Shown: in pieces, positions 9,581 through 62,525 of the stretch
How positions within the stretch are numbered: the first letter of the stretch is position 1
Layout of the letters: the number at the start of each line of letters is the position of its first letter
IMG/VR virus record: IMGVR_UViG_3300030102_006903
Location: 32,001-96,000 of that record
Direction: 5' to 3' (one strand)
DNA length: 64,000 bases
Source of the DNA: a virus
Program-made: the position numbers and the translations under genes
Notes under the pieces: generated by a model
Seen by the model: only the letters and a program-made list of their open reading frames with translations
Databases searched by the model: none
What the model was told of the DNA's origin: nothing

Positions 9581-9581
9581 A

Positions 9582-9613
9582 CAAATATACGAAATTATTT
9601 GTAATTTTCCAAA
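9582..9613 (-). promoter_or_regulatory. Bacteroidota-type promoter TTTG-N20-TATATTTG
   Basis: Matches the -33/-7 consensus; one of 14 copies. Confidence 0.8.
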
Positions 9614-23139: not shown

Positions 23140-23171
23140 CAAATATAGTAAAAATATTTGAATTATCCAAA
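23140..23171 (-). promoter_or_regulatory. Bacteroidota-type promoter
   Basis: TTTG-N20-TATATTTG. Confidence 0.75.
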
Positions 23172-24652: not shown

Positions 24653-24684
24653 CAAAGATACGAAATTTTTTTTTAATATCCAAG
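24653..24684 (-). promoter_or_regulatory. Bacteroidota-type promoter
   Basis: CTTG-N20-TATCTTTG. Confidence 0.7.
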
Positions 24685-25212
24685 TAATTTTAATATTTTT
24701 TTTACTGATTTTGGTCCTACTTTTATTGTATGATATGGAAATCCATTATCATCTAAAACTTGTTTACACAATTTATCAATTGCTACTGCTTGTTCGTAAT
24801 CTTGAAATCTTTCTTTATTATTGTGAACAGTATCACCTCTTTCTAAAAGGATATTAATATTATCATATTGATTGTGTAAATCAATTACCAAATTGTGAAA
24901 AGGTTCTCTGTAAAAACTTGCAGGATAACCTTTTGTGTAATATCTGTGATAAATAGTAGAGAAAAGGATTGGTGAATCGATGATTATATAATCAACTTTA
25001 CCATAACATTCTGCAATTCCTCTATGTTGATTTGCAAAAACATATAACTGGTCTGATATTGCTGGTATGTTTTTATCCCATGCTAATCTTTTTGGAAATT
25101 CGTATGGGTTATTACAACTTATATGTTGTTTTTTTAATTTATAAGTAACCCCATTTGCAATTGAGGATTTACCTATACCTGCTCCACCGAATAAATTAAT
25201 CAGTTTGCTCAT
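24673..25212 (-). CDS. P-loop kinase (NadR/Ttd14-like, possible nucleotide kinase)
   Basis: GGAGIGKS Walker A, IIIDSP, R..RFQ lid. Confidence 0.7.
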   Translation of the reverse strand: MSKLINLFGGAGIGKSSIANGVTYKLKKQHISCNNPYEFPKRLAWDKNIPAISDQLYVFANQHRGIAECYGKVDYIIIDSPILFSTIYHRYYTKGYPASFYREPFHNLVIDLHNQYDNINILLERGDTVHNNKERFQDYEQAVAIDKLCKQVLDDNGFPYHTIKVGPKSVKKILKLLGY

Positions 25213-25927
25213 ACTCTCTCCAATATCCTAAATCTTTTTTAAACCATTTTATATTTTTGTAATTGAAATAATTGAATAAATTTATTTTTAAAAAATTTAA
25301 ATATCCAAATTTCAAAAATCTTCTATTATCTTGTCCAATATATTCATTGAGTATTTTGAACCTTGATTTTGGTACCTCTTTCGATAACCAAAAATCTTCT
25401 GAATTTTGTAAAGTTTCATCGAACCCACCGAGTTCATTAAATTTCTTTTTAGAAATTAAAAAGAAACAACCTGTACAAAATGTGATTGGCATTATATTTC
25501 TCATCCAATCTAATATCTTATAAGTCCAAATAGATTTTTTATCATGAGTAGTTAATGATTTTTGTTTTACTGAAATGATATCGTATCTATTTAAATTTTT
25601 ATGTGCTTCATTTAAAACATTTCTACCTATAAGAACAGAATCAGCATCCATGAATAAAATGTAATCTGTTGATACAAATGTAGCACCATTATTTCTTGCA
25701 AAACCTACTTTACCACCTTGAACCACCTCTATTTGTAGATTAGAGAAATCCTCAGAGGCTTTTGATATATACTCAAGTGTTTTATCAGTAGAGTTATTAT
25801 CTGCAATTACAACTCGTAATACACCTTGGAAGTTTTGTCTTGATATTTTCCAAAGAGTATTGTAGATGTAGTTTTCCTCGTTATAACAAGGAATTATTAT
25901 TGTTAATAAATCAGTTATTGTTTTCAT
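25196..25927 (-). CDS. GT2 glycosyltransferase
   Basis: IIPCYNEE, DNNSTD, ARNNG, FMDAD, GGFDE...ED; start at ATG 25927. Confidence 0.9.
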   Translation of the reverse strand: MKTITDLLTIIIPCYNEENYIYNTLWKISRQNFQGVLRVVIADNNSTDKTLEYISKASEDFSNLQIEVVQGGKVGFARNNGATFVSTDYILFMDADSVLIGRNVLNEAHKNLNRYDIISVKQKSLTTHDKKSIWTYKILDWMRNIMPITFCTGCFFLISKKKFNELGGFDETLQNSEDFWLSKEVPKSRFKILNEYIGQDNRRFLKFGYLNFLKINLFNYFNYKNIKWFKKDLGYWREYEQTD

Positions 25928-25930
25928 GTG

Positions 25931-25959
25931 AAAAGAAAGTGGGGGAGTTTCCTCCCCCA
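25931..25959 (-). terminator. Rho-independent terminator after the TonB-dependent receptor gene
   Basis: TGGGGGAG-GAAA-CTCCCCCA then CTTTCTTTT on the minus strand. Confidence 0.9.
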
Positions 25960-25978
25960 ATATTTCTTTAGGTTGTTT

Positions 25979-28687
25979 TTAGAATCTGTATTTGAATGAA
26001 GCATTCCATGTACGTCCGAATCCGAACCATACTGAATTTCTTGTATCAATACCATTCCATGTTTCTGAAGCTGCTCCAGCATGGATGTTTGAGTTAGATT
26101 CTGCAATGTAGTAAGTATCAAGTAAGTTGTTGATATTTACTCTGAATGAAGCATCATTTCCGAATAAGTTGAATCTAAAGGTTGAACCTAAATCAACTAA
26201 TCCATAAGATGGTAACTTCAATGCACCCGCATTGTCAGGTGCTGTAAATTCTGAATCAGTAATTGAGTAATCTGCGTAAAGATTATCTACAAATCTATAT
26301 CCTAAATCTACATTTAACTTGTTTCCAAGTTTATAATCTGCTTCTAAGTAAGAAACGAATTGAGCTGCATCACCAACTTTAGCATCTTTTAAGTACAATG
26401 TACCTGTTCCGATTTGTTGGTTTTCATCATCAAATAACGCTGCTTCAAAATCTTTAGTATATCTCCAATCACCGATTGATAACATACCTTTTAATCTTAG
26501 TTTAGAATTATAATCATAAGTTGCCTCAACTTCTATACCGTTGTGAACTACATCGATATCCTTGAATTGTGCGAATCCATCAACACCTTGTTGGTTTGAT
26601 AAACTTCTTGTAACAAATCTGTTACCCCATACTGTTGAGTATGCGTTTACATTTGCTCTGAAGTTATTTCCAATGAATCCATATCCTAATTCAACCGATT
26701 TAATTTCCTCATTTTGTAAATCAGGATTAACAGTATTAGCATAGTTAGGGAATACACCATCAAAGTTTGGTTGTCTTGAGATGAAACCAGCATTGAAGAA
26801 TACATTATTCTTTTCATCAATGTTATAGTTTGCACCACCTTTTAGATAACCACCACCAACATTCTTAGTATCAGATATTGGATTACCTGGTTGTCCAAAG
26901 TAATCAATTCTTTGGAAAGATTGATTTGATAAACCAGCTTGTAATACAGCAGATAAAGTAGAGTTGTTATATTCAACTAAACCATTTAAACCTTGCCAAC
27001 CAACTTTACCAATATTATAGTAAGCGATTTTAGGGCCTCTGATACCTGTATCTTTGAATGGATTTGCTTCAACTAATGTATTAATTATTTGTCCTGCAGA
27101 GTTATCATTACCAGTTGAGTAATAACCATCTAATCCCATTAGGTGGTTTAATGCTCTATAATGATATCCTTTGTAGTTTCTTAAATCAATACCGATTGAA
27201 GTTTTCCAATTCCCTTTCTCATATTCTAAGTTAGAGATTGCTCCAACCCAGTCATGAGAGTTCATAGAAGCTCTTCTAATAAGTGCACTTCTGTTAACAC
27301 CATCAGCATTGAATCCATTTGAACCAATCAATTGACCTGTAAATGGTAAATCACCACTATATGGGTCTGTGTTTGCTTGGTTATATGCAACTACTGCATC
27401 AAAATCAATAAATCCTTCTGGTGTTCTTGAACCTCTACCATTTTCTAAGTAGTGTTCAGTAAGGTCTTTTCTAAATGGTAAGATATCAGTTTCCGAGTTG
27501 TAATAACTTTTACCTCTTGGACCTGTTCCTCCACCTCTACCAGCTGAACCATATAATGATGTAGCTAATTTAAGGTTAGAATTAATATCCCAATCCCAAT
27601 TCAGAGTTGCTAATGGTTTGTTGTAGAAGTTTCTTCTCATTGAGAATTCTTCTCCATTTAAAACACCACCATTTGTATTCCATCTTCTATCAATTCCTTC
27701 TGTACCAAAGTTTTGGTAGTCTCTAATAGAAACCCAAACATCTCTTTGGTGGTGCCATTGACCAGCACCTAAGAAAGAAAAGTTAACTGAGTGCTTAGAA
27801 TCTTCAGGTGCATATCCTAATGCAAAGAAGTAAGTATAACCCTCACCACTTGTATTATAGATATATCCATCACCTTGCCATCTACTTAATAAGAAAGATG
27901 AAGCCCAACCATTGTCATTAAGACCTGTTGAGTGAGAAACAGTAGTTTTGAAATACCCATCATTACCAAATGTTTGAGCAATTGAACTACCACTTCTTGC
28001 TTCAGCTGCCTTAGTAAAGATTGATACAGTTCCACCTACTGATGGTACTGCTAATCTTGAAGCACCTAAACCTCTCTGTAATTGGATTCCACTTGCAACA
28101 TCAGTAAGACCTTGCCAGTTAGACCAATAAACCCATCCATTTTCCATATCGTTAACTGGTTGCCCATTGATAAGGAAAGATGTATTTCTTTGGTCGAATC
28201 CTCTTAAAGAGATTCTCGAATCACCATATCCACCACCTTGTTTGGTTGCGTAGACACCTGGTGTTCTGTTCATTATCTCAGGAAACTCTTGGTTACCTAC
28301 TTTGAGTGCGATTTCTGATGGTGAAATAGTTGAAACTGCTACAGGTGTTTCTCTCACCTTTGCAATATCAATTACACCAGAACTTACAACAACCTCACCA
28401 AGTACATTCAAGTCAGGTGTTAAACCTACTTTCGTGTTACCACTTGATTCAATTACTGTGGTTTCGTACCCTAAGTAAGAAACAACAAGTGTTGTTCCCT
28501 CAGATACATCAAGAATAAATGTCCCATCAAAACCTGATATTGTACCATCTTGAGTTCCCTCAATGATGATAGTAGCACCTGGTAAAGGGTCATTTGTCTC
28601 GACATCATAAACTAATCCACTTATTTGGGAAAAGCTTGCTGTTATACTTCCAAATAGGAATAACAGACTTAACATTAAATTTCTCAT
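25979..28687 (-). CDS. TonB-dependent outer-membrane receptor (Bacteroidota type)
   Basis: Signal peptide ending SFS-Q; CarboxypepD_reg-like PLPGATI..DGTF; plug TPGV..ISLRGF..LINGQP; barrel end NNLLD.YY..GRTWNASFKYRF. Confidence 0.93.
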   Translation of the reverse strand: MRNLMLSLLFLFGSITASFSQISGLVYDVETNDPLPGATIIIEGTQDGTISGFDGTFILDVSEGTTLVVSYLGYETTVIESSGNTKVGLTPDLNVLGEVVVSSGVIDIAKVRETPVAVSTISPSEIALKVGNQEFPEIMNRTPGVYATKQGGGYGDSRISLRGFDQRNTSFLINGQPVNDMENGWVYWSNWQGLTDVASGIQLQRGLGASRLAVPSVGGTVSIFTKAAEARSGSSIAQTFGNDGYFKTTVSHSTGLNDNGWASSFLLSRWQGDGYIYNTSGEGYTYFFALGYAPEDSKHSVNFSFLGAGQWHHQRDVWVSIRDYQNFGTEGIDRRWNTNGGVLNGEEFSMRRNFYNKPLATLNWDWDINSNLKLATSLYGSAGRGGGTGPRGKSYYNSETDILPFRKDLTEHYLENGRGSRTPEGFIDFDAVVAYNQANTDPYSGDLPFTGQLIGSNGFNADGVNRSALIRRASMNSHDWVGAISNLEYEKGNWKTSIGIDLRNYKGYHYRALNHLMGLDGYYSTGNDNSAGQIINTLVEANPFKDTGIRGPKIAYYNIGKVGWQGLNGLVEYNNSTLSAVLQAGLSNQSFQRIDYFGQPGNPISDTKNVGGGYLKGGANYNIDEKNNVFFNAGFISRQPNFDGVFPNYANTVNPDLQNEEIKSVELGYGFIGNNFRANVNAYSTVWGNRFVTRSLSNQQGVDGFAQFKDIDVVHNGIEVEATYDYNSKLRLKGMLSIGDWRYTKDFEAALFDDENQQIGTGTLYLKDAKVGDAAQFVSYLEADYKLGNKLNVDLGYRFVDNLYADYSITDSEFTAPDNAGALKLPSYGLVDLGSTFRFNLFGNDASFRVNINNLLDTYYIAESNSNIHAGAASETWNGIDTRNSVWFGFGRTWNASFKYRF

Positions 28688-31295: not shown

Positions 31296-31327
31296 CAAAT
31301 ATACGAAAAATTTTTGATATATCCAAA
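31296..31327 (-). promoter_or_regulatory. Bacteroidota-type promoter
   Basis: TTTG-N20-TATATTTG. Confidence 0.8.
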
Positions 31328-33844
31328 TTAAAATGTAAAAAATTTCTCTGCTGTTCTTTGTTCACTTACAACATCACCCCAACCAATTGCATCATAAAAA
31401 TCTTGAAGTTTACCTTTTAACTCTCTTTCAAAAATTTTATTGTGGTCAATGTAAGTGTTAATGAATTCATTTATTTCTGATGGGTCTTTATAACCTGTAA
31501 ATGCCAAACCACTTAATCCAAGTGGATTATCTTTTAAATAAACCCATTTTACCTTATCACCATTTTTCATAGGTTCATATTTGAATGGTGCATCAAAATG
31601 TTTCAAACAATCGTTATATGCGATTGCAGCTTTTACATGAGCGGGTGTTCCTTTCATAAATTGAAACAAATTTCTTTTTCCTTTTGGTAAATACTTTTTA
31701 AGATTTTTAACTGCTGAATTCTTTGCAATTACTTTCATATCTTGATTTACCATAGATTTTTTAAAATCTAATACTTTATCTGATATTTCTTCTTCTGTTT
31801 GTCCTCGTAGAATTGATATAAGAACATCTGCCATGATTTCTTGAAATGCTTTTGGGAATGAACTTCTTTTAACATCCAAACCTTTTACATCTAATTTATC
31901 AACAGGTACTCCATTATCTGAAATAATCCATTGAGCATATCTTTTCTTGGCAATCCACAATCCAGCCTTTGCAACATATTCCTTTTTGATTTCTAATCTA
32001 TGTTTATCCTTATCAACATTAAAAATTCTTTTGGAAAGTATATTATAGAAATCATTAAGATAATCTTGCATCTCTTCTGCTATAACATTAACATACCCAG
32101 CGATAGTATCTTGTTCTTCATCTTTCCAATTAGGATATCTTTTATCCATCAGAGGAACTGCAGAAAAGAAAACTGAATCAGTATCAATATAAATGTTTGA
32201 ATCAGCATCTGGTGTATTTAATTCTTTGTTGTACTTAATATTCCCCATATCCGCAGTGGATTTAATCACAGTTTGACCTGTGGTTGTAACTGCCTCAGCA
32301 TTATCAACATCATAAAATCTAAATGCAGGTAAACCTAATACACCATACAATGAGTTTAATAAAATCTTTTGAACCAATTGTCTTTTATGATAAAACGCAT
32401 ATTTTTCTTTGTTACCTGCTTTACCATATTTTTTCATTGCATTTTTAAAATCTACTCTTTGATTAAACCAAAGGTTAAGAATATCTGGTATACAACCAAC
32501 TTTATCAGTTCTATACAATACACCATTTGATGATACTGAAAAATTAGATTGTTCTAAATATTTTTTTAGATTATCTCGTGAGATTGTATCTTCACCGATA
32601 AAGTAAGTATCTACCTCACCTTTAAGAAATTTATTTGCATCCCAATCTCTAATTTTACCAATCTTTGATTCTGGTGAAATATTCAAAGTCATAATGATTG
32701 ATGGATATAGAGAGGTTAAATCCAAATCATATACCCAATCGTATTTACCAACTATTGGTGATTTAACATATGCACCAATAAACTTCTCTTCATTGTTATC
32801 TCTAATTGCCTGCATCTTTTCCTGTCTATCTGCAGGTTTGTTTGGTGCAACTAAGTTTTTTCTTCTAAGGAATGAAAGTAATGCACCTTCAAGATATTTT
32901 GATGAATAAACAAAATCTTCATAAGGAACATGTCCTGCATGAGTAATACCTCTACATAAATCAATAAACTGAAGTTTCTTATCAAATTCAACTACCAACT
33001 CAACATCTACTAAGTTATACTCAATAAACTTTTCAATATCTTCTTTAAATAATTGGTCAAGATTTCCTTGATATTCAATCTTACCTCTACCTAATTCAAT
33101 TTGTCCAATGGTATCTAATCGATAATTTGGTAGTTCATTGTAATTAAATTTTTTGTATAATGTTATGTAATCTAAATAAGATACACCTGCCATGAAATAT
33201 CTTTTACGATATGGTGAATAGAAACATTGTCCAATTGGTGATAATCTATTCGCTTGTCTCTGTCCCAATAATCTTTTGATTCTATTGTATAACATTGGTG
33301 TATCGAAATAATCAATATTCCAACCTGTAACGATAGATGGATTAATGTATTCATATAATTCCAAATATTTCATCAACATATCTCTTTCATCTGCAAAAGG
33401 GATTACAATACATTTATCAGTAGTTTTTTCTTCAAGAATACCTTCGTTATCCATAACCAATACCCAATATTGATTTGTAGCGGAATCATGTAGTGCAATA
33501 GAAGTAATAGCATTCTTTGCTTCTTGTGGGTCTGGTGTTCCACTTTCCATTTCACACTCAATATCGTAAGTAAGAATAACATGACCAGTTGATGGTTCAT
33601 CTGAATCTGAGTATAAATCTACTAATGCTCTTGTAGTTTCTGGTACATCTGATTCAAATAAGTTTGCATCATCTTTACTGAATTTATAAATTTTTGTTAA
33701 TTTATCTCCATAAATAGAAGTATATTCACCTCTTTTAGCAGGTTCATATGCATATCTAGTATAAGGAAAAGAACGATATCCTTGTTTATCATCCCAAAGA
33801 TGAATTAGATTTTTTTCACGCTGATAATAAATGTTTTGATACAT
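31328..33844 (-). CDS. Family B DNA polymerase (gp43-like)
   Basis: Exo YDIE, GWNIDYFD, YNLVD; pol DLTSLYPS, KILLNSLYG, YIDTDS, KKRY; C-terminal clamp-binding-like AEKFFTF. Confidence 0.96.
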   Translation of the reverse strand: MYQNIYYQREKNLIHLWDDKQGYRSFPYTRYAYEPAKRGEYTSIYGDKLTKIYKFSKDDANLFESDVPETTRALVDLYSDSDEPSTGHVILTYDIECEMESGTPDPQEAKNAITSIALHDSATNQYWVLVMDNEGILEEKTTDKCIVIPFADERDMLMKYLELYEYINPSIVTGWNIDYFDTPMLYNRIKRLLGQRQANRLSPIGQCFYSPYRKRYFMAGVSYLDYITLYKKFNYNELPNYRLDTIGQIELGRGKIEYQGNLDQLFKEDIEKFIEYNLVDVELVVEFDKKLQFIDLCRGITHAGHVPYEDFVYSSKYLEGALLSFLRRKNLVAPNKPADRQEKMQAIRDNNEEKFIGAYVKSPIVGKYDWVYDLDLTSLYPSIIMTLNISPESKIGKIRDWDANKFLKGEVDTYFIGEDTISRDNLKKYLEQSNFSVSSNGVLYRTDKVGCIPDILNLWFNQRVDFKNAMKKYGKAGNKEKYAFYHKRQLVQKILLNSLYGVLGLPAFRFYDVDNAEAVTTTGQTVIKSTADMGNIKYNKELNTPDADSNIYIDTDSVFFSAVPLMDKRYPNWKDEEQDTIAGYVNVIAEEMQDYLNDFYNILSKRIFNVDKDKHRLEIKKEYVAKAGLWIAKKRYAQWIISDNGVPVDKLDVKGLDVKRSSFPKAFQEIMADVLISILRGQTEEEISDKVLDFKKSMVNQDMKVIAKNSAVKNLKKYLPKGKRNLFQFMKGTPAHVKAAIAYNDCLKHFDAPFKYEPMKNGDKVKWVYLKDNPLGLSGLAFTGYKDPSEINEFINTYIDHNKIFERELKGKLQDFYDAIGWGDVVSEQRTAEKFFTF

Positions 33845-33849
33845 AAGTA

Positions 33850-33881
33850 CAAATATACGAATTATTTTTCAAATATCCAAA
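33850..33881 (-). promoter_or_regulatory. Bacteroidota-type promoter of polB (probably leaderless)
   Basis: TTTG-N20-TATATTTG; ATG 5 nt downstream. Confidence 0.8.
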
Positions 33882-35112
33882 TAGGTTCACAAAAAGTTTT
33901 ATCTTGATTCTCTTCTGTATTCTTAAGAGTTTCTTCTTTGTATTGATTTTGGTTATGTTCGGTTTGTTTAACAGTTCCTGCTCCTCCACTATTAGGTCTT
34001 TTAGCAAGTTCCATACCTATACAACCTTTATATGTTAATCCTTTTGATTCTAAGAATTCACACATCGGTTGTGTAATTTCTTTCCAATCTTTTCCACCTC
34101 CACCTTTTTCTGAAGTGTAAACATCTGCAATATTAATTGCCATCTTACCACCTTTTTTCATAGTTGGTATAATTTTTTCTAATGCTTTATGAAGAAAATA
34201 TTCATTCCATGCTTGAATAGATTGATATCTAATCCAACTTTGAGTTTCATCATCTCCATATCTTTCTACATTAAAGTAAGGTGGTGAAGTGAAAACCAAA
34301 TCAAAATAATCATGATATTCTGAATAATCAAAATCTTCTGCAGGTGATTGATGTAAATCTACCTTTGTTGGGTTCTCAAAGAAAGAAGTATGTTTTTGAT
34401 AAAATTCAGCTTGTTGTTTGTATATTGGATGATTTTCTTTTCTTGGGTCGATTCCAACATAATGATTTACTGTTGAACTAGCACAGGCACCAGATAAACG
34501 GTCTCCCCAGCCAGCAGAAAAATCTAACATTTTTTCACTTCCAAAATATTCTGTTAAACATTTAGTGACATTTGGTTTATGTTGAGATGCTATATATTTA
34601 CGAAGTGAAATCATTAACCTTAATTCCTTCTTTCCAATTTTATCTAATTTTAAACTATATGCTGCACCCATCAAAGTAACCATAAATGCTCTTGTTCTCC
34701 ATGTCCTTGCTGGACCTGGATATCCACTTGAACAGATTGACCATCTGTTTTTTTCTTGCCACCAATTACTAGAGAGGTTACCTACATTATATCTTTTAAA
34801 GAAAAGAGGTTTACCTTCATATGTCAAAGAATATTTAGATTCTCGTGATTGTCTTTGAAACCATTCTTTTCCTTCAATTAATAATTCATTCCAGCGTATT
34901 CCTTTTAATTTAAAGTAATCATCTCTACAATTTTTTTCTGAATATTTTTCTGTCTGATATGGTAGAGGATATGTCATACACAAATCTGCAAGTTTTTCTT
35001 TAACCTCATCCTTCGTGTACATATCTTTTATATTTTGCCACTCTTCCTCATTTATCTCTAAATAAGGTTTCATATCATAAAATTTTTCAAAGTAATCTTC
35101 TCCGCCGTGCAT
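33862..35112 (-). CDS. Amino-methyltransferase-fold protein (DNA MTase-like), last gene of the putative modification operon
   Basis: LDFSAGWGDR motif I, FTSPPYF motif IV. Confidence 0.8.
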   Translation of the reverse strand: MHGGEDYFEKFYDMKPYLEINEEEWQNIKDMYTKDEVKEKLADLCMTYPLPYQTEKYSEKNCRDDYFKLKGIRWNELLIEGKEWFQRQSRESKYSLTYEGKPLFFKRYNVGNLSSNWWQEKNRWSICSSGYPGPARTWRTRAFMVTLMGAAYSLKLDKIGKKELRLMISLRKYIASQHKPNVTKCLTEYFGSEKMLDFSAGWGDRLSGACASSTVNHYVGIDPRKENHPIYKQQAEFYQKHTSFFENPTKVDLHQSPAEDFDYSEYHDYFDLVFTSPPYFNVERYGDDETQSWIRYQSIQAWNEYFLHKALEKIIPTMKKGGKMAINIADVYTSEKGGGGKDWKEITQPMCEFLESKGLTYKGCIGMELAKRPNSGGAGTVKQTEHNQNQYKEETLKNTEENQDKTFCEPIWIFEK

Positions 35113-35957
35113 TATTTTAAGTTTAATGATTTTCTATATGAACCACCAATATTCCAAAATAGAATCTTACCATCTAAGTTCTGAATATTATTTTCTAACC
35201 ACCACCACATTTTTCTTTCCCAAAACTCATTCATATCAAATGGATATTCGGTAACACCATCCATAAAATCATCGAATGCGTATTCTGATTTATAAATGTT
35301 AATATTATTTAAATCACCTGCCTTATTTTGATTTAAAATCTTTTTAGTAGATTCTATTGCTGACATTGTTACTGTGTGTACTTTTCTTCTATTGTTAAGT
35401 AAATCTTTCCAATCTTTATATTGAAGAAATTCTCTAATCAAACCAGATGCTGTTACACCACTTCCAATCGATACAACGAGATGGTCAAAATCTTGTTCTT
35501 CCAAAACTTCTTTCATTCTATCTTGCATGTAAGAAACATACGAAGGATGATTGAAAGCATACGGTAATTGTTGCCAACCTTCCTTTTTTGCGATACCACC
35601 AAGTTTATTCTCAAGTAATTTCATCATATTTGGTTTCAATGGATTTAGTGTTGCACCATTTCCTTTAATGATTTCTAATATTTCTGGTGGATATGATTTT
35701 GAATTAGGGTAAGATGATATAAACTCAATACCATATTCCTTACACATCTTTGACAATGTCCAACCAGTCCAACTTCCATATACTGAAAGATGGGTTAGTG
35801 GTTTTGATTTATCAATGTAATCAGATTCTATAATCTTTCTAATACCTTCAATCTTAGCCCATCGTGGATAGTTTACACCATCCCCAACTAAATCATCTCT
35901 TTTGACATGAACTACTTTACCTTTTAATTTATATTCTTCGATTGGTGTTTGTATCAT
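35112..35957 (-). CDS. Fold-type II PLP enzyme (D-cysteine desulfhydrase/ACC deaminase-like)
   Basis: VKRDDL...AK (PLP lysine), SIGSGVT phosphate loop, FWNIGG. Confidence 0.8.
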   Translation of the reverse strand: MIQTPIEEYKLKGKVVHVKRDDLVGDGVNYPRWAKIEGIRKIIESDYIDKSKPLTHLSVYGSWTGWTLSKMCKEYGIEFISSYPNSKSYPPEILEIIKGNGATLNPLKPNMMKLLENKLGGIAKKEGWQQLPYAFNHPSYVSYMQDRMKEVLEEQDFDHLVVSIGSGVTASGLIREFLQYKDWKDLLNNRRKVHTVTMSAIESTKKILNQNKAGDLNNINIYKSEYAFDDFMDGVTEYPFDMNEFWERKMWWWLENNIQNLDGKILFWNIGGSYRKSLNLK

Positions 35958-37459
35958 ATAAATTTGTATATTCCAACATTGTTATTCTTAACTCTTTCTC
36001 TTAATTTCTTATGTGAAAATCCATGTATCTTTTCAAAGTTATCACAAATAACATGAAACAATTTTTTTCTGTTTTTAAAGTTTATATTTGAATCTTCTAA
36101 AATAATAGTTTCTATGTACTCTTTAAAATTTGTACCTTTTTGAAAAGCCCTTTTTTCTTGGTCTAATATTTCATCAGGTAATTTACCTCTAAATGCATCT
36201 GCAAGTGGTCTTTTCCATTGTCCTTTATCTGATAAAAATTCATCTTGTAAATTTGTTGTATAATTTAAAAACTCTGTATCAAAGAATGGACATCTAAGTT
36301 CGATAGTTCCATAATTCATAAAAATTGTATTACCTCTTAACAAATTACCATAATGTTGTTTCTCAAATAAATTCTTTCTAACATCACTCCAATCTGGCTT
36401 TTTACTAAACATTCTAAATGTACCATATGAACCATACGATTCATCAGAACCCTCACCACTAAATGCAACTTTGATTCCATCCTTTACCATCTCTTCTGCA
36501 ATAAACGATTGTAATATACCAACTTCCATTTGAACTGTTGATGGGTATTCTATTACACTTATAGAATCAATGAATCTTTGTTTGATTATCTTTTCATCTC
36601 TTGGTACAAATACCTCAATAAGTTCAACTCCAATTGAATCTGCACAAACTCTTGCTTTTTGTAAATCTTTTGAATCTTGGTCAAAAGCAATTGTATATGC
36701 TTTGATATCTGGTATTCTTTGTGCAAGTAAATATGTAATGATTGCTGAATCTATTCCACCACTTAATGAAGTTGCAATAGGTACATCAGATAATAATCTT
36801 TTATCAACTGCATTTTCTAATAGTTTAAATGTAGTTTTACCAACCTCTTCATGTGATTTTGGTTTAGTTACCTCATCTGAAAATTGGAAATAAAAGTTTT
36901 CGTGTATTTTAAAATCATCTGTATCTAAATCGATTTCTATAAGAGTATTTTTAGGTACAATTTGAATATCATTTATTCCTTCTTGAGTTAAAATTGATTT
37001 TATCTCAGATGCAATGATATATTGATTGGTATTATGGATGTAGAGGGGTATTTTACCCACCCAGTCACGAGATAATATGATTTTGTTCGTATCATATATA
37101 ACAAAAGAAAACATCCCATCTAACCTCTCTAATTCGTTTTCTTTGTAAAGATATAAAATTATCTCTGAATCTGAATTAGATTTGAATTTATATCCTCTCT
37201 GTTCGTATTCTTTACGCAATTGTGGATAATTCCAAATCTCACCATTTACAATTAAATGAGTATCTTCAAATTCCATCGGTTGATTACCTAATGGAGATAT
37301 ATCATTTATTGATAAACGATTATGACCAAGATGAATTGTTTTATCTTTGTATAAAAATTCTTTTATACCACGATTATCTTTTCCACGATGAGAAATCTCT
37401 TCTAACATCGTATCTACATCACTATGTTTATAACCAATCGTTGCTACGATTCCACACAT
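35954..37459 (-). CDS. asnB: Asparagine synthetase B-like glutamine amidotransferase
   Basis: N-terminal MCGI, HRG, RLSI, NGEIWN, LSGGIDS, SGEGSDE. Confidence 0.92.
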   Translation of the reverse strand: MCGIVATIGYKHSDVDTMLEEISHRGKDNRGIKEFLYKDKTIHLGHNRLSINDISPLGNQPMEFEDTHLIVNGEIWNYPQLRKEYEQRGYKFKSNSDSEIILYLYKENELERLDGMFSFVIYDTNKIILSRDWVGKIPLYIHNTNQYIIASEIKSILTQEGINDIQIVPKNTLIEIDLDTDDFKIHENFYFQFSDEVTKPKSHEEVGKTTFKLLENAVDKRLLSDVPIATSLSGGIDSAIITYLLAQRIPDIKAYTIAFDQDSKDLQKARVCADSIGVELIEVFVPRDEKIIKQRFIDSISVIEYPSTVQMEVGILQSFIAEEMVKDGIKVAFSGEGSDESYGSYGTFRMFSKKPDWSDVRKNLFEKQHYGNLLRGNTIFMNYGTIELRCPFFDTEFLNYTTNLQDEFLSDKGQWKRPLADAFRGKLPDEILDQEKRAFQKGTNFKEYIETIILEDSNINFKNRKKLFHVICDNFEKIHGFSHKKLRERVKNNNVGIYKFI

Positions 37460-37460
37460 A

Positions 37461-38159
37461 CTATCTGTTTAATACTTCTAATAACTTTATTGTTTTCTTT
37501 TTTTCATTATCCATATCACCGATATGACATGAACATGCAAGTGTAGTTACTTTTTCTAATTCTAATCCACTTTGTTCAGCAAGGAAATGTCCCATCTCTG
37601 TTAACGCTGTATAATCTGCGTAACCACTTTTAGATACTCTATTTGAACGAAGAATTGATGTAAGGTATAGTTTACCATTTCTTGGTTTTAAATCAATCAT
37701 ACACATACAAGGTTGTGAATAAGGATTCCTTGCATCTTTAGTGGGGTCAAAGATAATTAGTTCACATCTTTTTACTGCTTTTCCACTACTTAAAATTTTA
37801 ATTACATTCTCAACCTGATTGAATTCACCTTTCCAAGATACCATTCTACCCCAATAAGATTGATGATAATGTTCTTTTATAAATTTATAATCCAAACCTT
37901 GTTCTGTTTCAAAAAATGGATTATCAGATTTCTTTTCTTCTGGTTTTAAAAATGTAACTGTCTTTGCAAAATCAATTCTATCATCACCCATTACCTCTCT
38001 AAAATATCCATCGAACCAATCATCTGATTTAAATTCTGTAATTTCAGTTACAACATTTAATTCTTCTGTAAGATTTCCCACTCTCACACCATTTTCCAAT
38101 AAATGTTTTGATACTTTCACCCATGCATCGCCAGGAGAAGTTGCTTCAATAATAGTCAT
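37461..38159 (-). CDS. Divergent thymidylate synthase/dCMP hydroxymethylase-fold protein
   Basis: SYWGRM, QPC catalytic Cys, KLYLTSILRSNR, GYAD, SCHIG. Confidence 0.75.
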   Translation of the reverse strand: MTIIEATSPGDAWVKVSKHLLENGVRVGNLTEELNVVTEITEFKSDDWFDGYFREVMGDDRIDFAKTVTFLKPEEKKSDNPFFETEQGLDYKFIKEHYHQSYWGRMVSWKGEFNQVENVIKILSSGKAVKRCELIIFDPTKDARNPYSQPCMCMIDLKPRNGKLYLTSILRSNRVSKSGYADYTALTEMGHFLAEQSGLELEKVTTLACSCHIGDMDNEKKKTIKLLEVLNR

Positions 38160-38160
38160 A

Positions 38161-38376
38161 TTATATTCTATTAATTGGTATTGTTATTAAATGATAATCT
38201 GAAAATTGTGGGTGTTGTTGTGTAAAATCAATTTTATCATTTAATTTTTTTTGGTATGCATAATGTGTTTCAATAAAATACATAACCTCAGTTCCATCGA
38301 TACTTTTAAGTTTTTTACTTTTGTTGATAGGAACTTGTGGAGTTCCTTTAATTTTAGTTGGTTTTTTTTCGTCCAT
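38161..38376 (-). CDS. Hypothetical protein, first gene of the putative modification operon
   Basis: 71-aa ORF between the promoter and the TS-like gene. Confidence 0.55.
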   Translation of the reverse strand: MDEKKPTKIKGTPQVPINKSKKLKSIDGTEVMYFIETHYAYQKKLNDKIDFTQQHPQFSDYHLITIPINRI

Positions 38377-38395
38377 AGAATTTATTTAAGTTATA

Positions 38396-38427
38396 CAAAG
38401 ATAAGAAAAAAATTTTAATTTTACAAA
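38396..38427 (-). promoter_or_regulatory. Bacteroidota-type promoter of the TS-like/AsnB/PLP/MTase operon
   Basis: TTTG-N20-TATCTTTG. Confidence 0.72.
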
Positions 38428-38871: not shown

Positions 38872-40653
38872 TTAACCATCACACGCAACACAATCTGGGT
38901 CTACTGCTCTAGTTGCAATATCTCCTCTAAGAACTGATTCAGTTCTCATATAATATAGAGTTTTAATTCCTTGTTTCCAAGCCTCTAATGTAACTTGATT
39001 TATCCACTTCGGTGTTGCAATCGAAGGGAAAGCTAAATTTAATGAAACTCCTTGGTCAATATACTGTTGTCTAACACCAGCCTGTTTTACCAAGTCCATT
39101 TGATTAATTTCTTTGAATGTTCTAAAAACATCTTTTACAGGATAAACTTTTTCTCTTTCTCCATTAGTAATTTCTTCACAAAGTACCATTTTACCTTCTA
39201 AGTAACACCACTTATCAAGTTCTTTGATATCTTGTACTGAACCACCATCTTCCAAAATTTTATCCCAAGTTTCTTTATTATTAACACCTGCTTTTCTTAA
39301 TACCTTTACTAACTCACCATTTTTTCTGATGAATGTACCTTTTGAAGTTTGTTCAGTAAATACATTCGCTGCCCATGGTTCGATACCAGCAGATACATTT
39401 CCAGCTAATTTAGAATTACTTACTGTTGGAGCAACTGCTCTTAAGTGAGTATTTCTAAATCCACTTTCTCTACACCATAGAGGTTCACCCATTTCAGATG
39501 CCATATCTCTTGATGCTCTTTCTGATTCTATCTTTAACTGAGAAAAAATCTTACGAGTTTCAAATTGTGCCTCCATACCTTCAAATGGAATACCATTTTG
39601 TTGTAGGTAAGTGTGCCATCCTAAAACTCCTAATCCTAATGCTCTACCTTTTTCAGCAGATGCAACAGAGTTTTCAAATCCTCTCATGTTTTTTGCTTTT
39701 TGAATAAACTCTGAAAGAACACCATCTAAAAACCAAGTTGCTGTATAAACTAAATCAGTATCTCTCCACTCATTGTATTTAGCAAGATTTACTGATGATA
39801 AACAACAAACAAAGGAATGGTTTTCATCTGTGTGTAAAGTAATTTCAGAACATATGTTTGTCATATGTACTTTCAATCCATTTTTTTTGTACATCTCAGG
39901 ATTAGATTTATTAATATTTCCTTTGTACATGATGTATGGTTCACCAGTTGCTTTTCTTTTTTGTAGTAATTTTCCCCACCTTCTTCGTGCATCAGGTTCT
40001 CCTTGTTCAAGTTTTCTCATAAACTTATCACCTACAACTGCACATTGGTGTAGATTAAGTGATTGTCTATTTACATCTCCTTTAGGTTCTCTGATTTCTA
40101 ACCAATCTTCAAAATCTTCATGTTCGATATTAAGGTTAACAGATGCTGCTCCTCTTCTTACTGAACCTTGGTTTGTAGCAAGGATTGTAGAATCATATAT
40201 TTTACAGAATGGTACAACACCATCAGATGTTCCATTACCTGTAATGGTAGCACCAGCAGGTCTTATTTGGTTTACACCAATACCAACTCCACCACCATGT
40301 TTAGCAAGTAACATTAGTTCTAAGTTTTTAGAACCAATATCGTATATTGAATCGGCAACATCAATACCAAAACAAGATATAGGTAATCCTCTATCAGTGC
40401 CAGTATTTGAAAGAACTGGTGTTGCTAAGTTTAACCAACCTTTCCATATATAATCAAAAAACTTAGTTGCCAGTTGAGGTTTGTTTAATCTTTGAGCAAC
40501 TCTTGTTGCAACTCTCCAATAAGCATCTTTTGGTTTTTCACCTGGTAATAGGTATCCTTTAGATATTGTTTTTACATAAATTTCTGTATTTCCCCAAGAA
40601 GGAAAATCAACATCGATTTCCCAACCTAATTCTTCGCCGTAGTTTTTTGCCAT
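38872..40653 (-). CDS. nrdA: Class I ribonucleotide reductase alpha subunit (no ATP cone apparent)
   Basis: ATPVL, ISCF, TNICSEI, APTVS, KTLYY, C-terminal CVAC. Confidence 0.95.
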   Translation of the reverse strand: MAKNYGEELGWEIDVDFPSWGNTEIYVKTISKGYLLPGEKPKDAYWRVATRVAQRLNKPQLATKFFDYIWKGWLNLATPVLSNTGTDRGLPISCFGIDVADSIYDIGSKNLELMLLAKHGGGVGIGVNQIRPAGATITGNGTSDGVVPFCKIYDSTILATNQGSVRRGAASVNLNIEHEDFEDWLEIREPKGDVNRQSLNLHQCAVVGDKFMRKLEQGEPDARRRWGKLLQKRKATGEPYIMYKGNINKSNPEMYKKNGLKVHMTNICSEITLHTDENHSFVCCLSSVNLAKYNEWRDTDLVYTATWFLDGVLSEFIQKAKNMRGFENSVASAEKGRALGLGVLGWHTYLQQNGIPFEGMEAQFETRKIFSQLKIESERASRDMASEMGEPLWCRESGFRNTHLRAVAPTVSNSKLAGNVSAGIEPWAANVFTEQTSKGTFIRKNGELVKVLRKAGVNNKETWDKILEDGGSVQDIKELDKWCYLEGKMVLCEEITNGEREKVYPVKDVFRTFKEINQMDLVKQAGVRQQYIDQGVSLNLAFPSIATPKWINQVTLEAWKQGIKTLYYMRTESVLRGDIATRAVDPDCVACDG

Positions 40654-41771
40654 TATATTAAATTTTTTACTAAATCGTTATTTTTTACAAGTATCAATAT
40701 TTGATATTTTTCATTTTTTGTAACACTTTTATAAGTTACATGCTGGTATGGTTTATAAATTAAACATTCACCAACTTTTGGTTTTATTAATGAAAATGTA
40801 TTTCTATCGTTTTTATACCATTCATCATAAACCTCAACCTCACCACCTTCATAATCATCATTCAAAGTTATATCATAGGTAGTAACATATTGTTTTTTAT
40901 CATCAAAAGGCATATCTTTGATTGTTTCTACATGTCTATCGTATTTATTGCCTTCTTCATATTTTACAAAAACACAATCTACCTTATTCATATCAATTGG
41001 TTTAAATTTTGAAAATAAAGTATTATTGATAATTTTTTCAAATTCTTTATTATACTTTAGTTTTCTTCTAAACCACTTTCTTTTATGTAGTATTCCTTCA
41101 ACTTCTTTTTCTACATCCTCAAAAGACAAATTATCTTTGTTTTCTGAAATTAATTTACTACATAATTCTGTTGTTAAAATATTTTTAGAATCGTAAAACT
41201 TATCTTTTCTAAATTCCCCACCTACAAAATATGTCCAGCATATTGTATGGTAAGGTTTTAACAATAGTTCGTAACCTTCTTGTTGTAGACCCATTGCTTT
41301 TGAATTTAGTAAATCTAAACTTTTAAGTTCAGCATATTCATAAATCGATAAACAACAATTTTCATTTGAGATTAATTTTGCATAATCTTCAAACTTTGAA
41401 TAATTTTTATCCTCATAGGTATCCATAAAGATACCATCAAATTTTTTACTAAGAGTTGGAATTACATCTATCCAATCTCCGAAGATAATTTCTACATTAT
41501 CTTTATCTTTTGCCCACTCAATTGCTGTATCATAAATTTGTTTATTGATTTCGATACAAGTGTAACTCTTAACACCCATAGAGTAAAATCTATTAGCAGA
41601 GTAACCTAAACCAAAACCAATATCTAAAATATGACCACCACCTTTTCCAACTACATTACAAAACTCTTCTGTAAGTGGTTTTGCTATTTTATCCATAACG
41701 ATACCTTTATTTTTGATACCATCAGAATAAAATATTCTATCCTTTGTTATCGTAACCTTTTTATTTTTCAA
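40653..41771 (-). CDS. GAMT/Rmt2-like SAM methyltransferase fused to a 2OG-Fe(II) oxygenase-like domain
   Basis: LDIGFGLG, CIEIN, GDW, FDGIFMDTY; C-terminal KYEEG.KYDRHVE, LNDDYEGGE. Confidence 0.75.
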   Translation of the reverse strand: MKNKKVTITKDRIFYSDGIKNKGIVMDKIAKPLTEEFCNVVGKGGGHILDIGFGLGYSANRFYSMGVKSYTCIEINKQIYDTAIEWAKDKDNVEIIFGDWIDVIPTLSKKFDGIFMDTYEDKNYSKFEDYAKLISNENCCLSIYEYAELKSLDLLNSKAMGLQQEGYELLLKPYHTICWTYFVGGEFRKDKFYDSKNILTTELCSKLISENKDNLSFEDVEKEVEGILHKRKWFRRKLKYNKEFEKIINNTLFSKFKPIDMNKVDCVFVKYEEGNKYDRHVETIKDMPFDDKKQYVTTYDITLNDDYEGGEVEVYDEWYKNDRNTFSLIKPKVGECLIYKPYQHVTYKSVTKNEKYQILILVKNNDLVKNLI

Positions 41772-44497: not shown

Positions 44498-44529
44498 CAA
44501 ATATACGAAAAATATTTTTAAAATCCAAA
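44498..44529 (-). promoter_or_regulatory. Bacteroidota-type promoter
   Basis: TTTG-N20-TATATTTG. Confidence 0.8.
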
Positions 44530-47913: not shown

Positions 47914-48342
47914 TTACTTGGCCCATTTACCACTTGAAACTAATTGTGCAATGATACCATAAACTGATAAATCTTGGAAGGTATCTTCACATGATTCACC
48001 TATATTATCTTGTTTACCTAGTATAACTAATTGTTTTAATCTTTGAATCTTATCATGCATTCTAAACCAAAGACCTGTAAGAGATACTTTCTTTTCTTCT
48101 TCAGTTTGTAAATTACTACAAACCGAAATATTTTCTGGTCCATAGTTAGATTGTTTTAAACAAAATAATTCATATTGTGTAAACATAATTCTTTTAAACT
48201 CTGCTGTCATTTCTGGCCATTGTTTTTCCATTTCCTCAACAACCTTTGGGTTATCATATTTGATAACTTCATCATATTGAGGTTTAACAATCTCTGGTTT
48301 AAATTTATGATTTTTTGATTTTTTTCTAACAGTTTTCTCCAT
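47914..48342 (-). CDS. Nucleotide-modification-associated domain 1 (Nmad1/DUF1599)-like protein
   Basis: KQSNYG, RMHDKIQRL, ESCEDTFQDLSVYGII. Confidence 0.75.
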   Translation of the reverse strand: MEKTVRKKSKNHKFKPEIVKPQYDEVIKYDNPKVVEEMEKQWPEMTAEFKRIMFTQYELFCLKQSNYGPENISVCSNLQTEEEKKVSLTGLWFRMHDKIQRLKQLVILGKQDNIGESCEDTFQDLSVYGIIAQLVSSGKWAK

Positions 48343-48361: not shown

Positions 48362-48393
48362 CAAATATACGAAATTATTTTTATAATTCCAAA
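48362..48393 (-). promoter_or_regulatory. Bacteroidota-type promoter
   Basis: TTTG-N20-TATATTTG. Confidence 0.8.
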
Positions 48394-57163: not shown

Positions 57164-57195
57164 CAAATATAAGAAATTATTTTGATAATTCCAAA
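57164..57195 (-). promoter_or_regulatory. Bacteroidota-type promoter
   Basis: TTTG-N20-TATATTTG. Confidence 0.78.
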
Positions 57196-61769: not shown

Positions 61770-62525
61770 TTAAGAAATTTTAGCTGAACCTACATCGATT
61801 GGTTCTCTCTTCATATGATTTCCTTTAGCAAAGTTTGCTCCTTCTCTGATGTAACCAGTTAAGAATGCTCTTCTAAATCTTTTTGATGTATTTGGTTCAG
61901 AACCATGAACTACATTTGAATGAAGTAATGCAACTTGTCCTTTTCTTAGATATCCATCTATATGTGGAAAGTTGTGGTCCTTTGGTAGTACACAAGGTTT
62001 ACCCCTTTCGTTTCTCCAATTTTTTGGATTTGAACCTGCCCTTTCTTCATCAACTTCAATTGGAAGTTTACCTAATCTATGTGAACCTTCTAAATACCAT
62101 ACTGAACCATTATTAGGGTCGTGATTATCAAATGCAATAGATACATTGATTATTTCGTTAGAATTACATTGTGTATAAAATATATTTTGATGCATATCTC
62201 TACCTAATTGACCTGGTGGTTTAAAGTATGCCCAAGTTTGAACTCCGAATATTTTTCCACCCATCAAAAATTCACATGCTTCAATAACTTTTGGATGTTT
62301 CATTAAACCAGTAAGAACCTTAGATTCTTTATGTGGATACATATATGGGTCATAATCTCCCCATTCACCTTCTGTATCATTCTCTTGTCTTTTTACTCTG
62401 ATTCGTTCTAATTCATCCGCACATGCATCTACTTCACTATCTGTAAGTAGATTTAAAATAGATACTCCTTTGTATCTCCAATCAAATTGTAATTGTTGTT
62501 TTTCTAATTCTGTAAGATAACTCAT
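61770..62525 (-). CDS. PhyH-family Fe(II)/2OG dioxygenase
   Basis: FKPPG, HQN (HxD variant), NG....GSH, VVHGS.PN.S...RR. Confidence 0.82.
   Translation of the reverse strand: MSYLTELEKQQLQFDWRYKGVSILNLLTDSEVDACADELERIRVKRQENDTEGEWGDYDPYMYPHKESKVLTGLMKHPKVIEACEFLMGGKIFGVQTWAYFKPPGQLGRDMHQNIFYTQCNSNEIINVSIAFDNHDPNNGSVWYLEGSHRLGKLPIEVDEERAGSNPKNWRNERGKPCVLPKDHNFPHIDGYLRKGQVALLHSNVVHGSEPNTSKRFRRAFLTGYIREGANFAKGNHMKREPIDVGSAKIS

Follow-up and report, generated by a model that had tools for sequence, protein, structure and literature searches.

What might a thymidylate synthase-fold enzyme, an asparagine synthetase homolog, a pyridoxal phosphate (PLP) enzyme and a methyltransferase-like protein be doing together in a phage genome, packed back to back beside the DNA polymerase gene? 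This question is raised by a stretch of 64,000 nucleotides, the window in what follows, which comprises positions 32,001 to 96,000 of the IMG/VR virus record IMGVR_UViG_3300030102_006903. Five minus-strand open reading frames (ORFs) run from 38376 down to 33862, each overlapping its neighbor or lying 1 nt away from it; along the block there are, in order, a 1-nt gap, another 1-nt gap, a 4-nt overlap and a 1-nt overlap. Thioredoxin, nrdA, a methyltransferase/2-oxoglutarate (2OG) oxygenase fusion and nrdB are encoded upstream, and polB (31328-33844) begins 17 nt past the end of the block. These coordinates confirm a preliminary description of the DNA, which had placed five packed genes between nrdAB/trx and polB. 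The block, whose four larger products we call TS232, AsnB501, PLP281 and MT416 (Table 1), probably serves, as a self-contained module of the phage, to make a hypermodified cytosine for virion DNA. We read it in this way because of the linkage of the genes, their virus-only distribution, the cytosine-type, folate-less character of the thymidylate synthase homolog, and the kinship of two of its partners with enzymes that tailor carboxyl or amino-acid groups on DNA bases.

TS232 passes the Pfam superfamily profile Thymidylat_synt (PF00303; 25.9 bits against a cut-off of 24.3), and it matches the NCBIfam model of the methanogen-type thymidylate synthases at 7.9e-21, under that model's cut-off. Its AlphaFold model (predicted local distance difference test score, pLDDT, of 81) has more than 390 thymidylate synthase-fold matches in the PDB at E <= 0.001. 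When TS232 is aligned with E. coli ThyA, T4 gp42, RB69 gp48 and M6 gp58, the equivalents of Cys146 (Cys151), Arg166/Ser167 (Arg171-Ser172), Tyr94 and His207 are retained, and Asp182 occupies the position of N177 in E. coli and D179 in T4. An aspartate here is established as the residue that selects cytosine over uracil (cited in PMC13326640). In place of the folate-contacting Asp169 there is Arg174, the Arg126'/Arg127' pair is Lys-Arg, and Gly replaces Tyr209. A profile search for the family among 1.84 billion representatives gave 1,118 hits at E <= 0.001 and 13 full-length members at <=50% identity, and the same picture emerges from the 13: the catalytic Cys151 and the phosphate contacts Arg171 and Ser172 are invariant, and all 13 have RSx[R/A]xSK[S/A]GY[A/G]D, with remoter relatives reverting to RSxD. 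At the D169 position they have Arg or, in four cases, Ala, and never Asn; the Arg126'/Arg127' pair has become Lys-Arg or Lys-Thr, the residue in place of Tyr209 varies (Gly, His, Arg or Ala), and a Ser or Gly stands at position 143, neither acidic nor L143E.

Which reaction could such an enzyme catalyze? ThyA is recognized by Asn177 together with Asp169, and TS232 has Asp182 and Arg174 in their places. The T4-type dCMP (deoxycytidine monophosphate) hydroxymethylases combine N177D with Asp169 and an acidic residue 143, and only the first of the three is present. According to Lee et al. 2026 (PMC13326640), D169N is diagnostic of the 5-hydroxy-dCMP synthases; this change is absent from the 13 representatives, though N177D is there. 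Because position 169 is Arg or Ala, TS232 fits none of the three characterized classes. Among the four references, the family profile aligns best with RB69 gp48 in hhalign (96%, E 3e-9), above M6 gp58, ThyA and T4 gp42, with the last of these the weakest at a probability of <=7%. The best PDB match by sequence is MilA, and the top Foldseek neighbors of the model are the flavin-dependent dCMP hydroxylase AfhB (9iqc, 9iqu) and MilA, at near-equal E-values. The preliminary description had likened the enzyme to T4 gp42, which does not hold: the folate Asp is lost, and the nearest of the four compared homologs belongs to the flavin-dependent 5-hydroxy-dCMP synthases. That the enzyme acts on cytosine, as the description also had it, and that it is not the phage's own thymidylate synthase are supported by the aspartate at the N177/D179 position and by a canonical ThyA (300-316 bits) encoded elsewhere in the three complete relatives G001-G003. 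Since the two coexist there, TS232 is an extra, specialized paralog, and the residues described above support a cytosine-type enzyme rather than a housekeeping thymidylate synthase. Its substrate may be dCMP, which is favored because the phosphate contacts are kept and because of the position of the gene, or cytosine in DNA, which is favored because kinase and dCTPase are missing and the partners are DNA-acting. By analogy with Arg350 of CmoX (see below), Arg174 was considered as a residue that might bind a carboxylate; the idea was dropped, as the residue is Ala in 4 of the 13 representatives. Clustering at 90% identity divides the TS-like enzymes into 193 protein clusters, among them some from Tara Oceans samples. 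A complex prediction for AsnB501 and TS232 gave 0.00 against a mark of 0.32, was run without controls and counts neither way.

The linkage of TS232 with its partners was examined in other genomes. With AsnB501, MT416 and a TS family alignment as queries, some 150 loci were gathered from IMG/VR, from metagenomes and from one contig of an Ignavibacteria metagenome-assembled genome (MAG); gene orders were counted in the 100 evaluable loci that have enough sequence downstream of the TS gene, without deduplication. A co-occurrence search of the domains had been named beforehand as a check on the preliminary description, and the order TS-AsnB-PLP, with overlapping or abutting ORFs, was found in 85 of the 100, at identities down to 49% for AsnB and 46% for TS. 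A further eight loci are classed as having, in the slot of AsnB and ahead of the PLP gene, a PP-loop ligase of a 308-aa type that has no glutaminase domain. In about five a B12-domain-type radical S-adenosylmethionine (SAM) enzyme lies beside TS; of these variants, L148 and L160 also have a PP-loop ligase, and L041 has both AsnB and PLP. The PLP enzyme is present in about 95% of loci. Fusions were found as well: TS::AsnB in L033, TS::radical-SAM in P0163 and radical-SAM::N6_N4 methyltransferase in L148. The order kept in some 100 loci and the existence of fusions agree with the earlier claim of a functionally linked module. The module is widespread among phage contigs of marine and freshwater origin, and only one of the 185,579 species genomes scanned has a relative (the MAG contig), all other relatives being on viral or metagenome contigs. 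In the window and its closer relatives it sits between ribonucleotide reductase and polB; the most distant loci show neither gene adjoining. A DNA-level search with the operon against 50,697 phage records gave no match.

Some of these loci deserve separate mention. The L033 fusion (5353-7485, 710 aa, in-frame) is a single case that lacks the last ~15 TS residues and the first ~14 AsnB residues, including the glutaminase Cys (Cys2); either a natural deletion or an artifact of the assembly could explain it. The radical SAM proteins of L148 (7627-9981) and P0163 are of the B12-domain type, with only weak similarity to ArsL, HpnR and BchE-type enzymes, and no loci related to P0163 or P0166 were found in IMG/VR. 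An ORF of 140 aa occurs at varying places (L006:1736-2158, L012:4035-4457, L014:5573-5995, L023:10826-11248 and L056:4657-5079), in L014 between the TS and AsnB genes, and in L140 a GIY-YIG protein (9181-9807) is encoded between polB and the radical SAM gene. Genes of both kinds may be mobile and code for homing endonucleases.

AsnB501 matches the Pfam families GATase_7 (1e-31) and Asn_synthase (2e-42), begins with MCGI and contains the PP-loop SGGIDS and the motif EGSDE. As Cys1, Arg49, Asn74, Gly75, Glu76, SGGxDS, Glu348 and Lys449 of E. coli AsnB are all kept, AsnB501 should hydrolyze glutamine and adenylate a carboxylate. It scores 255 against the AsnB equivalog NF006949, whose cut-off is 499, and thus fails it. 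In BLASTP, Streptomyces phage TurkishDelight gp124 (229 bits, 30% identity) and a second phage clade (241 bits) score above E. coli AsnB (164 bits), and a change of Asp384 to Asn is common to AsnB501 and both of them. On either side of the gp124 gene lie those of a CmoA-like methyltransferase and a C5-cytosine methyltransferase. A GATase-bearing ligase class was linked to CmoX and CmoA by Yang et al. 2025 (PMC12783734), who predicted that it amidates 5-carboxymethylcytosine with glutamine-derived ammonia and who report that the protein was insoluble. TurkishDelight gp124 matches this class because of its CmoX/CmoA-like neighbors. The 308-aa ligase leads to the same system. In L122, a contig of 275 kb, it occupies the AsnB slot among flanking genes with 90-95% identity to those of the window, and its sole relatives in the phage database (52-76 bits to the CmoY proteins) are CmoY of S-B43 and a Staphylococcus phage homolog, both of which sit between CmoA and CmoX. 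A ligase of this family implies that the intermediate bears a carboxylate.

For PLP281 the score in Pfam (PALP, 28.9 bits) lies under the cut-off of 35, and the protein belongs to phrog_7093 (9e-20). It aligns with phage M6 gp52 over residues 4-271, that is 95% of its length (E 2e-21), with Lys35 opposite Lys36 of gp52, the proposed Schiff-base lysine (PMC8989533); Lys35 and the GSGVT phosphate loop are conserved in 12 homologs of PLP281. The best PDB match of the family profile is the ACC-deaminase homolog 1j0a, which is also the template reported for ViI gp226 (PMC8989533). Both gp52 and ViI gp226 act within DNA, where they decarboxylate C-alpha-glycinyl-thymine and O-seryl-thymine (PMC8989533). 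PHROG labels the family threonine dehydratase, and M6 gp52 is one of its members. Membership in the gp52 family would call for an intermediate with a primary amine beside a carboxylate or an acidic C-H. The preliminary description was right about fold type II; the beta-replacement chemistry that it proposed is less well placed, as the closest characterized relative is a decarboxylase (PMC8989533). The PLP gene exists in two forms, ~85% and ~47% identical to PLP281 (e.g., L012:6876-7712 and L014:7497-8336), and in phages with either form the AsnB and TS genes are ~80-88% identical; this suggests cassette exchange inside the operon.

For MT416, the Pfam match to N6_N4_Mtase (PF01555) reaches 23.9 bits against a cut-off of 26.7, and the N-terminal 190 aa matched no known family. 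Motif I reads DFSAGWGDR and motif IV reads SPPYF, as in amino-methyltransferases; DxSxGWGxR, GxD, SPPYF and NIA are invariant in MT416 and nine diverse homologs. The model has a class I methyltransferase fold, with generic or RNA amino-methyltransferases as nearest folds and the amino-methyltransferases Trm11 and METTL5 as low root-mean-square-deviation neighbors. An exocyclic or side-chain amine would be a natural guess for its target. In most loci an MT416-like gene lies <=7 kb away at a shifting position, and in distant groups it is directly upstream of TS. A 544-aa paralog, also encoded in the window, has all of the invariant motifs and aligns with the catalytic half of MT416 at 29% identity (E 3e-22); it is without a synteny tie to the TS-AsnB-PLP trio and is possibly related in function. 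On a 251-kb IMG/VR contig, L070:4030-8443 encodes an AsnB-like protein (36% identical), a GNAT protein and two tandem MT416-like proteins between an RNR (ribonucleotide reductase) gene and polB. Neither a TS nor a PLP gene was detected in this 13-kb locus, and the cassette looks like a second, related modification module. Overall the domain calls of the preliminary description were correct by Pfam and PHROG, those of the PLP enzyme and the methyltransferase lying below the cut-off and being backed by the other evidence given here.

How does this set of enzymes compare with known pathways? The closest parallels in TS232 itself are the 5-hydroxy-dCMP synthases (RB69 gp48, DLP3 gp80 and HY126 AfhB; PMC13326640), which have the TS fold, the catalytic Cys, the Asp at N177 and the loss of the folate Asp169 in common with it, are encoded shortly upstream of a DNA polymerase gene as well, and give the best profile and structure match among characterized homologs. 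However, they have Asn169, Glu143, Arg126'/Arg127' and Tyr209, where the TS232 family has other residues, and their partners are arabinosyl- and glycosyl-transferases instead of an amidotransferase and a PLP enzyme. The CmoA/CmoX/CmoY system of Synechococcus phage S-B43 (Yang et al. 2025, PMC12783734), whose products are 5-carboxymethylcytosine and its glycine amide, likewise includes an ATP-dependent asparagine-synthetase-family enzyme predicted to amidate a carboxylate on C5 of cytosine; here, neither CmoX nor CmoA is encoded in the record and four relatives, and TS-fold and PLP enzymes take their place. The thymidine pathways of M6 and ViI comprise a dUMP hydroxymethylase, 5-HMUDK, AADT, the radical SAM isomerase gp53 and the PLP decarboxylases gp52 and gp226 (Lee et al. 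2018 and 2021; PMC5889632, PMC8989533). They resemble the module in starting from a TS homolog, in the gp52-like PLP enzyme, in radical SAM enzymes (here in variant loci) and in the combinatorial swapping of tailoring genes. They differ in their target (uracil/thymine there, cytosine here), in relying on a 5-hydroxymethyldeoxyuridine (5-hmdU) kinase and an amino acid:DNA transferase that are absent here, where an amidotransferase belongs to the core, and in their radical SAM enzyme, since those found here are B12-domain-like and unrelated to M6 gp53. 5-HMUDK and aGPT-Pplase were predicted by Iyer et al. 2013, as reported in PMC8989533, and Lee et al. 2021 mention, without further explanation, amidoligase and glutaminotransferase genes in thymidine clusters (PMC8989533). 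The T4 gp42 pathway (gp56 dCTPase, gp42, gp1 kinase and glucosyltransferases) is alike in its cytosine-specific TS homolog beside the DNA polymerase gene and in the T4-like replication module, and it differs in that the folate Asp is lost here and no gp56 or gp1 homologs were detected. Both the AsnB and the PLP protein have kin among enzymes with a demonstrated role in tailoring groups on DNA bases, and the statement of the preliminary description that the gene combination is absent from characterized pathways stands: a literature search found no paper on this gene set or on the candidate products.

The known pathway starters were looked for in the record (G000) and in four relatives that are 95-100% complete (G001-G004). 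Neither AADT (PF18724) nor the 5-hmdU kinase (PF18748) nor the C5-methyltransferase PF00145, for which the control genomes matched, was found in these five, nor were a relative of SpCmoA or ThyX. With the M6 pathway proteins (5-hmdU kinase and AADT) as queries nothing was found in the record, and the P-loop protein of the window is unrelated to M6 gp54. This P-loop kinase (24673-25212) and an Nmad1-like protein (47914-48342) had been suggested as suppliers of the kinase and dNTP-sanitizing steps; they are present in 3 and 2, respectively, of 4 near-complete genomes that carry the module, both being missing from G004, and neither is supported as an obligate helper.

We infer the substrate, the chemical steps, their order and the level (nucleotide or DNA) at which they take place as follows. 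The Cys151 thiolate of TS232 would add to C6 of a cytosine, and C5 would be functionalized without methylene-tetrahydrofolate; a folate-free step is suggested because the folate-contacting Asp is Arg or Ala clade-wide. PLP281 would help to give the group on C5 a part that resembles an alpha-amino acid, with both primary amine and carboxylate, unless the group bears it from the start; such a side chain would be the simplest intermediate to suit both the ligase and the gp52 family. AsnB501 would adenylate the carboxylate and turn it into a carboxamide with ammonia from glutamine, which would remove the negative charge; M6 and ViI lose the same charge through decarboxylation. MT416 would methylate an amino group on the side chain or on a DNA base, and the end product would be a C5-substituted cytosine, bulky and either neutral or cationic, on which host nucleases are blocked. 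As a whole this explanation has a somewhat better than even chance of being correct; the specific route through an amino acid to an amide is tentative, at somewhat less than even odds. The chemistry outlined in the preliminary description, a Ser/Cys-derived side chain on C5 that would be amidated and then methylated, is plausible as a proposal.

Several observations weigh against this explanation. AsnB501 reaches 288 with TIGR01536, the broad model of asparagine synthases, and so exceeds its cut-off of 267, and it keeps most of the residues that we take to form the aspartate site, which makes asparagine synthesis compatible with its sequence. The Pfam scores of PLP281 and of the methyltransferase domain of MT416 are below their cut-offs. 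Part of the clade has Ala instead of Arg at the D169 position, so that this Arg is no essential substrate contact, and no cultured phage in the phage database carries the module. At the sensitivity of single-sequence searches, no homolog of the T4 gp1 deoxynucleoside monophosphate (dNMP) kinase or of the gp56 dCTPase was found in the relatives, which fits poorly with a full replacement of dCTP by a modified nucleotide. In addition, an amidating enzyme and a homolog of a decarboxylase would compete for one carboxylate, so that at least one of AsnB501 and PLP281 must act unlike its characterized relative. Our preference is that amidation would be the charge-removing step and that PLP281 would act otherwise than gp52; it may install the amino acid by beta-replacement, a chemistry that is typical of its fold.

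A bolder version of the first step has the C5 carbanion, formed after addition of the Cys to C6, attack an amino-acid-derived electrophile made by a partner enzyme, rather than methylene-folate or flavin-activated oxygen. The electrophile could be a PLP-bound aminoacrylate supplied by PLP281 or, where variant loci have a radical SAM partner, a radical or dehydroglycine-like species that this partner produces; the resulting C-C bond would give a (cytosin-5-yl)-amino acid, which the AsnB- or CmoY-like ligase would amidate and the SPPY enzyme N-methylate. This proposal accounts for the lost folate site and for PLP and radical SAM enzymes as alternative partners, as well as for the TS::radical-SAM and TS::AsnB fusions and for the absence of known amino-acid-installing enzymes, and yet we regard it as rather unlikely.

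If TS232 were a flavin-dependent 5-hydroxy-dCMP synthase like RB69 gp48 and AfhB, then 5-hydroxycytosine (5hoC) would enter the DNA, PLP281 would add a serine-derived aminoacrylate to the 5-hydroxyl group, or another enzyme would alkylate it, and AsnB501 would amidate the carboxylate gained in this way on DNA. This would be a sub-variant of the explanation preferred above, with a defined first step, and it would agree with RB69 gp48 being the closest of four characterized TS homologs to the family profile, with the dCMP hydroxylase structures 9iqc and 9iqu as top matches, with the presence of N177D and the lost folate Asp, and with relatives of ViI gp226 that act on an O-substituted serine on DNA (PMC8989533). 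However, the residues at 169 (Arg or Ala) and 143 (Ser or Gly) are not those of D169N and L143E, the Foldseek E-values of AfhB and MilA are practically equal, and the search for a relative of T4 gp1, the dNMP kinase, gave none. We also know of no member of the gp52 clade that catalyzes beta-replacement. The assays of RB69 and DLP3 used co-expression of each phage's own dNMP kinase, and in both phages glycosyltransferase clusters accompany 5hoC (PMC13326640). On balance a hydroxylated first intermediate appears unlikely. TS232 might instead put a carboxyl-bearing one- or two-carbon unit on C5 by itself, for example by carboxylation or by addition to glyoxylate, and in this way replace CmoA and CmoX; AsnB501 or the CmoY-like ligase would then form the amide, and PLP281 or the radical SAM enzyme would make a co-substrate or tailor the ligated amine. 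The most constant pairing is indeed that of TS with an amide-forming PP-loop enzyme (L148, L160 and L041 included), both ligase types are akin to enzymes from CmoX/CmoA clusters, C5-methyltransferase and CmoA are absent from the five records, and ATP-driven amidation could pull an unfavorable C5 carboxylation. To our knowledge, however, no TS-fold enzyme uses electrophiles of the bicarbonate or glyoxylate type, PLP281 would be left without a defined role despite its presence in ~95% of loci, and Arg174 is not invariant. We consider a direct installation of this kind quite improbable.

Could the module act on something other than virion DNA, such as tRNA or another RNA, a metabolite of the free nucleotide pool or a nucleoside-type secondary metabolite? 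MilA, the best PDB match by sequence, is the CMP hydroxymethylase of the pathway for the antibiotic mildiomycin, the fold of MT416 is like that of the tRNA/rRNA amino-methyltransferases Trm11 and METTL5, and dCTPase and dNMP kinase were not found. However, the location between the RNR and polB genes in the window and its closer relatives, the near-confinement to viral and metagenome contigs (one relative in 185,579 species genomes), the action on DNA of those AsnB and PLP relatives whose function is known, and the fusion of a radical SAM partner to a canonical DNA N6/N4 methyltransferase domain make such a target very unlikely. Less credible still is ordinary metabolism, in which AsnB501 would make asparagine, PLP281 would be a serine/threonine dehydratase, TS232 would be a thymidylate synthase or a plain dCMP hydroxymethylase, and the genes would be adjacent by chance or through co-regulation. 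Database labels speak for it, with TIGR01536 passed by AsnB501, threonine dehydratase as the PHROG name of the PLP family and thymidylate synthase as the label of the TS family in the source databases. The PHROG in question, however, includes M6 gp52, a proven DNA-base decarboxylase (PMC8989533); TS232 has Asp at N177 and no D169, and relatives have a canonical ThyA in addition; AsnB501 fails the AsnB equivalog (255 vs 499) and shares D384N with the CmoX-linked phage enzyme; near-identical genomes swap AsnB for a CmoY-like ligase without a GATase domain; and the gene order is rigid across distant phages, with fusions in addition. This explanation is already disfavored, and we give it next to no chance.

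Promoter-like elements around the block and the remaining features of the window complete the picture (Table 1). The source record is a 113-kb IMG/VR virus fragment with a completeness estimate of 59%; its replication genes are T4-like (gp32-, RecA-, clamp-loader- and DnaB-like), and the closest cultured polB is that of Microcystis phage Mel-JY01 (53% identity). The preliminary description had one promoter drive the block. A plain sigma-70 scan of the window was at chance (51 sites vs 49 expected), and the single element TAnnTTTG alone is not enriched. The site upstream of the first ORF, however, fits the bipartite pattern TTTG-N20-TAnnTTTG, which occurs 13 times in the window compared to 5.1 +/- 2.3 expected, a count reached in 0 of 100 shuffles. 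On this basis the site is taken as a putative promoter. Eight minus-strand copies, most of them shortly upstream of an ORF start, have a common 32-nt consensus, TTTGGA(A/T)...TTTC(G/T)TATATTTG (9582-9613, 23140-23171, 31296-31327, 33850-33881, 38396-38427, 44498-44529, 48362-48393 and 57164-57195). Copies of the motif are directly upstream of the TS gene in the relatives L003 and L004, further upstream of the module in L006 and L020, and, in close relatives, also directly before polB. No terminator-like sites were found on the minus strand within the block, and the five genes look like one unit between two promoter-like elements. The 32-nt element is probably a phage promoter class. Its layout, TTTG at -33 and TAnnTTTG at -7, corresponds to the Bacteroidota sigma-A consensus, and it hints at a Bacteroidota host. 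The 71-aa ORF at the head of the block has no match in Pfam, PHROG or NCBIfam and was detected in 3 of the 76 loci compared, and its membership in the pathway is doubtful.

Table 1. Promoter-like elements and coding sequences of the gene block and its surroundings (window coordinates)
Feature	Position	Strand	Basis or remark
Promoter-like motif TTTG-N20-TATCTTTG	38396..38427	-	In the 44-nt gap before the first ORF; enriched motif class
Small ORF, 71 aa	38161..38376	-	Ends 1 nt ahead of the TS-like gene; ORF list
TS232, divergent thymidylate-synthase-fold enzyme, 232 aa	37461..38159	-	Pfam, NCBIfam, alignments, model
AsnB501, glutamine-hydrolyzing ATP-dependent amidotransferase, asparagine synthetase family, 501 aa	35954..37459	-	Pfam, motifs
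PLP281, fold-type II PLP enzyme, phage M6 gp52 clade, 281 aa	35112..35957	-	PHROG, gp52 alignment
MT416, class I SAM-methyltransferase-like protein, 416 aa	33862..35112	-	Motifs, fold
Second 32-nt promoter-like copy	33850..33881	-	Overlaps the MT416 3' end, directly before polB; downstream edge of the unit
SPPY methyltransferase-like paralog of MT416, 544 aa	28912..30546	-	Beyond polB and a clamp-like gene

Other genes of the window were considered as parts of the pathway. The radical SAM genes at 20929-22185 and 58011-60026 were rejected as partners: they are unrelated to M6 gp53 and have only generic similarity (E 8e-5) to the TS-linked radical SAM enzyme. The former (minus strand) encodes a SPASM-domain protein and the latter (minus strand) a 671-aa protein with a weak match to a B12-binding domain; like a PhyH-type dioxygenase at 61770-62525 (minus strand), neither has a synteny link to the operon. 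The gene at 40653-41771 (minus strand), between nrdA and nrdB, encodes 372 aa with class I methyltransferase and 2OG-Fe(II) oxygenase domains. It was dropped as a CmoA analog, as there is no similarity and only 2 of the 76 loci, L006 and L007, have a homolog (52% identity). A family-2 glycosyltransferase (25196-25960) adjoins a 902-aa ORF (region 25196-28687); a tie to base modification is conceivable, given that phages with 5-hydroxy- or 5-hydroxymethyl-cytosine glycosylate their DNA.

We read the module as a member of the pyrimidine hypermodification systems that are initiated by a TS homolog, here aimed at cytosine. It has no known pathway starter, and the active site of its TS-fold enzyme falls outside the three characterized classes; there is a real chance that its first step is a new reaction type. 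Hypermodifications of phage DNA decide whether it can be read by restriction enzymes, CRISPR nucleases and sequencing chemistries, and they have yielded enzymes for epigenetic sequencing and DNA labeling. Solving this module would probably add a new natural DNA base, could extend the thymidylate synthase fold to a new type of reaction, and would yield the first assayed glutamine-dependent ligase that forms amides on DNA.

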